DNA of 64,000 nt from Escherichia coli. GTDB taxonomy: Bacteria; Pseudomonadota; Gammaproteobacteria; Enterobacterales; Enterobacteriaceae. The first letter of the stretch is position 1; every line of letters starts with the position of its first letter. Below, one piece after another: positions 18,001-21,000 of the stretch. The stretch lies in NCBI RefSeq assembly GCF_013315695.1, contig NZ_CP054353.1; one strand, 5' to 3'. The position numbers were made by a program.

Positions 18001-21000
18001 TCCCATTTTTTGAATTGATCGTTATAAACGCCTTCCGGCAGATCGTCACGGGCAACGTACAGCTGAATGCGACCGCCAACGTCCTGCAGGGTAACGAAAG
18101 ACGCTTTACCCATAATACGACGGGTCATCATGCGGCCAGCAACGGCGACTTCGATGTTCAGCGCTTCCAGTTCTTCGTTCTCTTTGCCGTCGAATTCTGC
18201 GTGCAATTGGTCAGAGGTATGATCGCGACGGAAATCGTTCGGGAAGGCAATCCCCTGCTCGCGCAGGTTCGCCAGCTTCTCACGACGCGTTTTCAGTTCA
18301 TTGTTAAGATCGACTACCGCGTCAGCGCCCTGTGCGTTTTGTTCAGACATGTTGGTTCCTCATAACCCTGCTTTCAAACTTGCTTCGATAAATTGATCCA
18401 GGCTGCCGTCCAGCACGGCCTGCGTGTTGCGGGTTTCTACCCCGGTGCGCAGATCTTTAATGCGGGAGTCATCAAGGACATAAGAACGAATCTGGCTGCC
18501 CCAGCCGATGTCGGATTTGTTATCTTCCATCGCCTGTTTCTCGGCATTTTTCTTCTGCATCTCCAGTTCATAAAGCTTCGCTTTCATCTGCTTCATGGCC
18601 TGGTCTTTGTTCTTGTGCTGGGAACGGTCGTTCTGGCACTGAGTCACGATCCCGGTTGGGATGTGAGTAATACGCACCGCAGATTCGGTACGGTTAACGT
18701 GCTGACCGCCCGCGCCGGATGCGCGATAAACGTCGATGCGCAGATCCGCCGGATTGATTTCGATATCGATATCATCATCAACTTCCGGGTAAACAAACGC
18801 GGAGCTGAACGACGTGTGGCGACGACCGCCGGAGTCAAACGGGCTCTTACGCACCAGGCGGTGAACGCCGGTTTCTGTACGCAGCCAGCCATAAGCGTAA
18901 TCGCCGGAGATTTTGATCGTCACGGATTTAATACCCGCCACTTCACCTTCCGACTCTTCAATGATTTCAGTTTTGAAACCACGCGATTCAGCCCAGCGCA
19001 GATACATACGCTCAAGCATGCTCGCCCAGTCCTGTGCTTCCGTACCGCCAGACCCCGCCTGAATATCGAGGTAGCAGTCGGCGCTGTCATATTCGCCAGA
19101 GAACATACGGCGGAACTCAAGCTGCGCCAGTTTTTCTTCCAGGGCGTCGAGTTCAGCAACGGCTTCGTTAAAGGTTTCTTCGTCGTCAGCTTCTACAGCC
19201 AGTTCCAGCAGACCAGAAACATCTTCCAGCCCCTGCTTCATTTGGTCGAGGGTGTCGACAACGGCTTCGAGGGAGGAACGCTCTTTACCCAGCGCCTGTG
19301 CGCGTTCGGGTTCGTTCCAGACATCCGGCTGTTCCAGCTCGGCGTTTACTTCTTCCAGACGCTCTTTCTTGGCGTCATAGTCAAAGATACCCCCTAAGAA
19401 CGTCGGAGCGTTCCGTGAGGTCCTGAATGCGATTATTTATCGGATTAATTTCAAACATGGTCTGATTTCTTTTATTGAGCTAGTCAAAATGCGGTGATAA
19501 GAGCGGGATTGTACCCAATCCACGCTCTTTTTTATAGAGAAGATGACGCTAAATTGGCCAGATATTGTCGATGATAATTTGCAGGCTGCGGTTGCCGCGA
19601 AACTCGTTGATATCGAGCTTGTAAGCCAGTTGCACTTCGCGCACGCCGTTATCCGGCCAGAGGGCGGTATCGACATTAAAAGCAATACCATCCAGCAGCG
19701 GACCGCCGCCGACCGGCTCGACCATGACTTTCAAATGACGCTCGCCCACCAGCCGCTGTTGCAGCAGACGGAAATGACCATCAAACAGCGGCTCCGGGAA
19801 CATCTGCCCCCACGGGCCAGCATCGCGCAACAGCTGCGCCACTTCCATGGTCATTTCGGCCGGACTTAACGGACCGTCCGACACCACTTCGCCTTGCAAT
19901 AAAGAAGGATCTAACCACTCAGTAACCAGTTCGCCAAACCGTTGTTGAAAGAGTTCGAATTTATCCTCTTCCAGCGACAAACCCGCCGCCATCGCATGAC
20001 CGCCAAACTTGAGCATCATGCCAGGGTAGAGCGTGTCTAACCGCTCCAGCGCATCACGCATATGTAGCCCCTGAATGGAGCGACCGGAACCTTTCAGCGT
20101 ACCATCACCTGCTGGCGCAAAGGCGATAACCGGACGGTGAAAACGCTCTTTGATGCGCGAAGCCAGAATACCGACCACGCCCTGATGCCATTCGGGGTGA
20201 TACATTGCCAGCCCGCCGGGTAGTGTGTCACGGCTGCGCTCCAGTTTCTCGCACAGGGTCAGGGCTTCAATCTGCATTCCTTGTTCGATCTCTTTTCGCG
20301 TCTGGTTTAGCGCATCGAGTTCATTTGCCAGCACGCGCGCTTCGCCGATGTTGTCGCACAGCAACAGCGCCACACCAACGGACATATCATCCAGTCGCCC
20401 GGCAGCATTGAGACGTGGCCCCAGCGCAAAACCTAAATCGCTGGCGGCGAGTTTTTGCGCATCGCGATTTGCCACTTCCAGCAGCGCTTTAATCCCCGGA
20501 CGGCACTTACCGGCACGGATGCGACTCATCCCCTGCCAGGTCAGAATGCGATTATTAGCGTCCAGCGGTACGACGTCCGCCACTGTCCCCAGCGCGACCA
20601 GATCCAGCAGTTCTGCCAGATTAGGAATTGCGATGCCGCGCTCATCAAACCAGCCCTGATCGCGCAAAAAGGTGCGCAGAGCCAGCATCAGATAAAACGC
20701 CACACCCACGCCTGCCAGTGATTTCGACGGGAAATTACAGTCGCGCAAGTTAGGGTTAATGATCGCTTCCGCTGCGGGTAATGTGTCGCCTGGCAAATGG
20801 TGATCGGTAACAATAACCGGAATGCCCAACGAACGAGCGTGTTCAACCCCCGCATGGGAGGAAATACCGTTATCCACCGTGACAATTAACTGCGCGCCAC
20901 GGGCATGAGCCTGATCGACTACTTCCGGGCTTAAGCCGTAACCGTCTTCGAAACGGTTTGGAACCAGGTAGTCGATATTGCTGCAACCAAGCGAGCGCAT

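Follow-up and report, generated by a model that had tools for sequence, protein, structure and literature searches.

The closest described system is the prfB gene of E. coli K-12 and B, whose +1 frameshift site was described by Craigen and Caskey in 1986 (cited through PMC5373646) and has been reviewed in PMC12421855. According to this review, the elements of the signal are a weak UGA-C stop, a CUU codon able to re-pair as UUU, a UAU codon in the E site and an AGGGGG element held at a critically short spacing of 3 nt. Ribosome profiling of the native E. coli locus has put the shifting at about 28% for K-12 and at about 21% where RF2 carries Ala246 (PMC5373646). Ala246, the fully active form of RF2, occurs in E. 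coli B as well as in the majority of strains, and Thr246 is specific to K-12 (PMC5373646). The prfB motifs of other bacteria share the Shine-Dalgarno (SD)-like element, the 3-nt spacing, CTTT, TGA and the following C, and an unbiased published survey has found a premature stop with the consensus AGGGGG-N3-CTTTGAC in 8,164 of 12,753 species (64%), both as given in PMC12421855. What the SD-like element does in Bacteroidia is under debate (PMC10798248).

In the present study a stretch of 64,000 nt of E. coli DNA, called the window below, was analysed, and the prfB gene on its minus strand was compared with these systems. The gene carries what is, with near certainty, the canonical autoregulatory +1 programmed ribosomal frameshift site of E. 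coli prfB (RF2). This frameshift is already known and nothing at the site is novel. What was established directly is how the site is built, which protein the gene encodes and how far the site is conserved. The minus strand between 19200 and 19620 was read base by base, from ACC ATG TTT at the start to TAT CTT TGA C at the frame junction, and the features of the gene and its downstream neighbour are as follows.

19384-19458, minus strand: prfB frame 0, with ATG at 19458-19456 and 25 sense codons, the last of which is CUU (Leu25); RefSeq places the same CDS start in identical genomes
19390-19395, minus strand: internal SD-like element AGGGGG, 3 nt 5' of the CUU shift codon
19387-19389, minus strand: UAU (Tyr24), the spacer, with a predicted role as E-site codon at the shift (role taken from PMC12421855)
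19383-19386, minus strand: slippery CUUU, made of the P-site CUU (19386-19384) and the U of UGA, on which Leu-tRNA would re-pair in the +1 frame
19380-19383, minus strand: UGA (19383-19381, codon 26) followed by C (19380), a weak RF2-specific stop and the presumed sensor of the RF2 level (context effect from PMC12421855)
18360-19382, minus strand: prfB +1 frame, from Asp26 (GAC, 19382-19380) to Leu365, with the stop TGA at 18362-18360
19438-19440, minus strand: codon 7, AUA (Ile), which is GUA (Val) elsewhere in E. coli; GTA>ATA, V7I, a rare allele
19375-19377, minus strand: second 0-frame UGA (CUA UGA), created by a synonymous TAC>TAT at Tyr27; a lineage variant outside the canonical signal
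16833-18350, minus strand: lysS, starting 9 nt past the stop of prfB and read in the same direction, forming a prfB-lysS pair
16793-16814, minus strand: terminator-like hairpin with a T-run just past lysS, a consensus match only

A preliminary description of the locus had placed the start ATG at 19456-19458 on the minus strand and counted 25 codons up to CUU UGA C, and all of these positions hold to the base. The AGGGGG that it reported ahead of the shift site lies at 19395-19390, with UAU between AGGGGG and CUU. Its designation of the site as the textbook autoregulatory frameshift is also supported, since all the published motif elements are present in the same form as in the E. coli reference (PMC12421855). 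The sequence elements tested for the RF2 +1 frameshift class were all found, namely UGA at codon 26, CUUU, the following C, AGGGGG at 3 nt, an RF2 host gene and the remainder of the gene in the +1 frame. A search with AGGGGGNNNCTTTGAC, allowing at most one mismatch, gave a single match over the 64 kb of the window, where shuffled sequences lead one to expect 0.04, and chance is excluded because this match falls where two frames meet which jointly code a complete RF2.

The duplex between AGGGGG and the 3' tail of E. coli 16S rRNA was computed at -8.3 kcal/mol, as against -9.2 kcal/mol for the consensus AGGAGG; the tail sequence in this calculation was supplied from general knowledge, as the rRNA genes, like the relevant tRNA genes, lie outside the window. 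When folded, the 141 nt around the site showed no more structure than shuffled controls (z = -0.51), and a stimulatory hairpin or pseudoknot is thus not indicated. This lack of local mRNA structure fits with a signal that is independent of structure. Scanned against Rfam at gathering thresholds, the window likewise gave no match at the prfB site.

From GAC at 19382 the +1 frame stays open for 340 codons, which together with the 25 codons of frame 0 gives 365 amino acids. The joined two-frame product scored 525.9 bits with TIGR00020 (NCBIfam prfB; cutoff 370), well above its own scores with RF1 models, and carries the Pfam PCRF and RF-1 domains. Against the crystal structure of E. coli RF2 (1GQE), residues 1-365 were aligned with no gap at Leu25/Asp26, and the joined product matches the contiguous junction peptide GYLDYDAK already visible in E. 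coli RF2 structures. The SPF motif of stop-codon recognition was located at residues 205-207 and the catalytic GGQ motif at 250-252. Residue 246 is Ala, coded at 18720-18722 on the minus strand (coordinates counted from Asp26 at 19382). Judged by its sequence, the joined product is full-length RF2. The preliminary description had further proposed that RF2 be annotated as one CDS, which agrees with RefSeq, where the identical sequence is given as a joined CDS with the remark "programmed frameshift". The same two-piece joined CDS with this remark is found in isolate AF3, strain MSB1_4I, K-12-like, EDL933, ST95 and the other genomes inspected.

In comparison to E. coli K-12 and B, the locus has the same 19-nt core CTTAGGGGGTATCTTTGAC, the same UGA at codon 26, the same 365-aa product and the same neighbours, with recJ upstream and lysS downstream. 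It differs from K-12 in V7I (GTA>ATA), in the TAC>TAT change at Tyr27 which puts an extra 0-frame UGA two codons past UGA26, and in Ala246 of RF2, where the window is like E. coli B and most strains whereas K-12 has Thr246 (PMC5373646). The window holds another programmed frameshift, that of IS1 insA-insB', whose transposase RefSeq likewise gives in related strains as a joined CDS with "programmed frameshift". There the shift is by -1, opposite to that of prfB, and uses a homopolymeric A6C slippery run, with neither a stop-codon sensor nor release-factor autoregulation.

That termination and shifting compete kinetically at this site, that the anti-SD sequence pairs with it and that the tRNA slips are all inferred from the published E. 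coli experiments on an identical core sequence. By analogy with these, the ribosome would start at the ATG at 19458 and read 25 codons, which would leave Leu-tRNA paired to CUU in the P site, with UGA-C occupying the A site. When RF2 is plentiful, UGA would be recognised and a peptide of 25 residues released, whereas with RF2 scarce the ribosome would wait at UGA. During this wait the 16S rRNA would pair through its anti-Shine-Dalgarno tail with AGGGGG, 3 nt upstream of CUU, the UAU codon in the E site would lose its tRNA and Leu-tRNA would slip from CUU to UUU. GAC would then enter the A site and the last 340 codons would be read to give full-length RF2. Since RF2 itself terminates at UGA and the shift takes place when it is scarce, RF2 would in this manner limit its own synthesis.

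Within E. coli, the 1.3-kb prfB region was present as a single copy in 5,425 of 5,426 complete genomes. Isolate AF3 (NZ_OZ547117.1) and strain MSB1_4I (NZ_LR898874.1) carry this region with 100% identity. The 30-nt block with the frameshift core was exact in 5,416 of the 5,425 genomes and the 60-nt block spanning codons 8-27 in 5,406 of them. The preliminary description had named alignment with E. coli prfB as its check, and in our alignment the core CTTAGGGGGTATCTTTGAC was invariant against four other strains, the frameshift site being the same in K-12-like, EDL933 and further strains. Eight further E. coli genomes showed one difference each within the 30-nt block. An intact site is biologically the expected state in nearly every E. 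coli genome, and it is also a sign of accurate assembly across the G5 homopolymer. Its proposed use as a check on sequence and annotation is reasonable, with one complete E. coli assembly having G4 in place of G5, so that the shift is not needed there. For annotators, the two frames are to be joined into one RF2 of 365 aa and not recorded as a pseudogene or a truncated gene.

The assembly with G4 in the SD-like run is that of E. coli O145 RM8995-C1 (NZ_CP031355.1; positions 104-107 of the locus). Its prfB lies in a single frame (…LRGIFDYD…), and the annotation gives a plain CDS without frameshift. The missing G may be an error in assembling the homopolymer, or else the strain may have naturally lost the autoregulation of RF2; in Pseudomonas fluorescens, single-base deletions of the G4 type occur as compensatory mutations (bioRxiv 10.64898/2026.01.08.698412).

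The V7I allele was found in only 2 of the 5,425 complete E. coli genomes, those of AF3 and MSB1_4I. In other species Ile7 is common (23 of 51 leaders of equal length), and the exchange therefore looks conservative. The TAC>TAT change at Tyr27 is present in 997 of the 5,425 genomes. A ribosome reading through UGA26 in the window would meet a stop after one more codon, whereas the K-12-like 0 frame runs 31 codons further. It may be speculated that the two variants are functional and not neutral, the second UGA acting as a fail-safe which holds near-cognate readthrough products to 27 instead of 57 residues and V7I slightly altering pausing or shifting, and we regard this as improbable. With Ile7 widely used by other species and TAT being a widespread clade marker, a functional role of V7I or TAC>TAT is simply not suggested by the evidence.

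Outside E. coli, the exact 16-mer AGGGGGTATCTTTGAC was found at no fewer than 120 loci in representative genomes of other species; the scan demanded exact matches, and this in part dictates that the 16-mer is the same in all these species. Among the 120 matches listed, the +1 frame codes an RF2 homologue in 116, with the alignment starting exactly at residue 26 and a protein identity to the RF2 of the window of 41.7% to 99.7%. Two of the remaining matches lie at contig ends and are cut, and two are there by chance. The hosts among the matches listed include Gammaproteobacteria and Betaproteobacteria, Bacteroidota, Nitrospirae, Rickettsiales and Deltaproteobacteria. Also among the matches listed, the Leu codon just 5' of AGGGGG is CTT in 43 cases, CTC in 37, CTG in 22 and TTG in 7, with others making up the rest, and this freedom among synonymous forms indicates that the 16-mer loci represent independent lineages. 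The leader length differs between lineages, and in the matches listed from other lineages an ATG is located 20-27 codons 5' of the site.

Three other explanations of the frame break were weighed against a programmed frameshift. The break may be a sequencing or assembly error, or a true inactivating mutation which has left prfB as a pseudogene. The site does contain a G5 homopolymer, at which the public assembly of O145 RM8995-C1 differs by one G, but the identical break with identical bases stands in 5,416 of 5,425 complete E. coli genomes and, among the matches listed, recurs in 116 other species at the corresponding place in RF2. Moreover, RF2 is an essential factor (PMC5373646). The probability of an error or a pseudogene is thus considered to be negligible.

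Just as improbable is an arrangement of two cistrons, with a leader peptide of 25 aa followed by an RF2 which is initiated independently downstream. The 0-frame ORF closes with a stop as that of a leader peptide would. However, no ATG, GTG or TTG was found in the +1 frame between the junction and 19241, so that residues 26-72 can be obtained only via the shift, and residues 1-25 and 26-72 align to the solved RF2 as a single continuous chain. The reading of UGA26 as an amino acid, by readthrough or as selenocysteine and with no frameshift, has the in-frame UGA in its favour and nothing more. Past this UGA the 0 frame continues as CUA UGA, an immediate second stop with no RF2-like sequence, whereas the RF2 homology carries on in the +1 frame only, and the chance that UGA26 is decoded in this way is practically nil. 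The programmed +1 frameshift is the reading retained here, and no feature of the sequence speaks against it. An antisense ORF at 18393-19397 on the plus strand (334 aa) was also considered and was rejected as a shadow ORF of prfB, the annotated genomes all placing only prfB at this position.

At the 3' side of the pair, the hairpin at 16793-16814 likely marks the end of the prfB-lysS transcription unit, as suggested by its consensus match. At the 5' side, a consensus promoter scan of the recJ-prfB spacer gave no sigma-70-like match, and hence no prfB promoter was found in it. The spacer contains an inverted repeat (AGAGCG-GGATTG...CAATCC-CGCTCT, about 19497-19532), flanked by the stop of recJ and the start of prfB. 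The terminator-like scan of the spacer matched on the plus strand only, at 19506-19521, opposite to prfB. From its sequence the repeat may be either a recJ terminator or an element of the prfB 5' UTR.

The window is closest to the E. coli isolates AF3 and MSB1_4I. The match to MSB1_4I spans 6658-64000 with 99.956% identity, and that to AF3 spans 14587-50972 with 100% identity. Identity of the window with either of them is ruled out, as the IS1-associated rearrangements on the left differ from both, and the window thus belongs to a third strain closely related to these two. Three copies of IS1 are present, at 6658-7425 (plus strand), 14587-15354 (minus strand) and 53962-54729 (plus strand), and each has the A6C motif, as AAAAAAC at 6964 and 54268 on the plus strand and as its complement at 15042 for the copy on the minus strand. 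In positions 1-15400 the ETT2 type III secretion island is present as remnants (ygeH and EscJ/PrgH-type genes) which IS1 has broken up. Positions 1-6657 directly adjoin IS1, and about 8 kb of MSB1_4I is absent there, by a rough estimate from coordinates; the ETT2 region of AF3 is arranged differently again from those of the window and MSB1_4I. In the matching genomes uacT (15357-15992 of the window) is truncated beside IS1 and argO (about 53400-54900) is split by IS1, and both are annotated as partial pseudogenes. At 50972-51155, scpC is intact in the window and in MSB1_4I; AF3 is without about 194 bp there and its gene is annotated as frameshifted. The Rfam scan of the window gave the following RNA genes, each of which is expected for this region of E. 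coli.

38135-38318: 6S RNA (ssrS)
38967-39117: SIB antitoxin RNA opposite ibsC
12856-12926: tRNA, the only one found in the window, corresponding to the tRNA-Gly annotated in MSB1_4I
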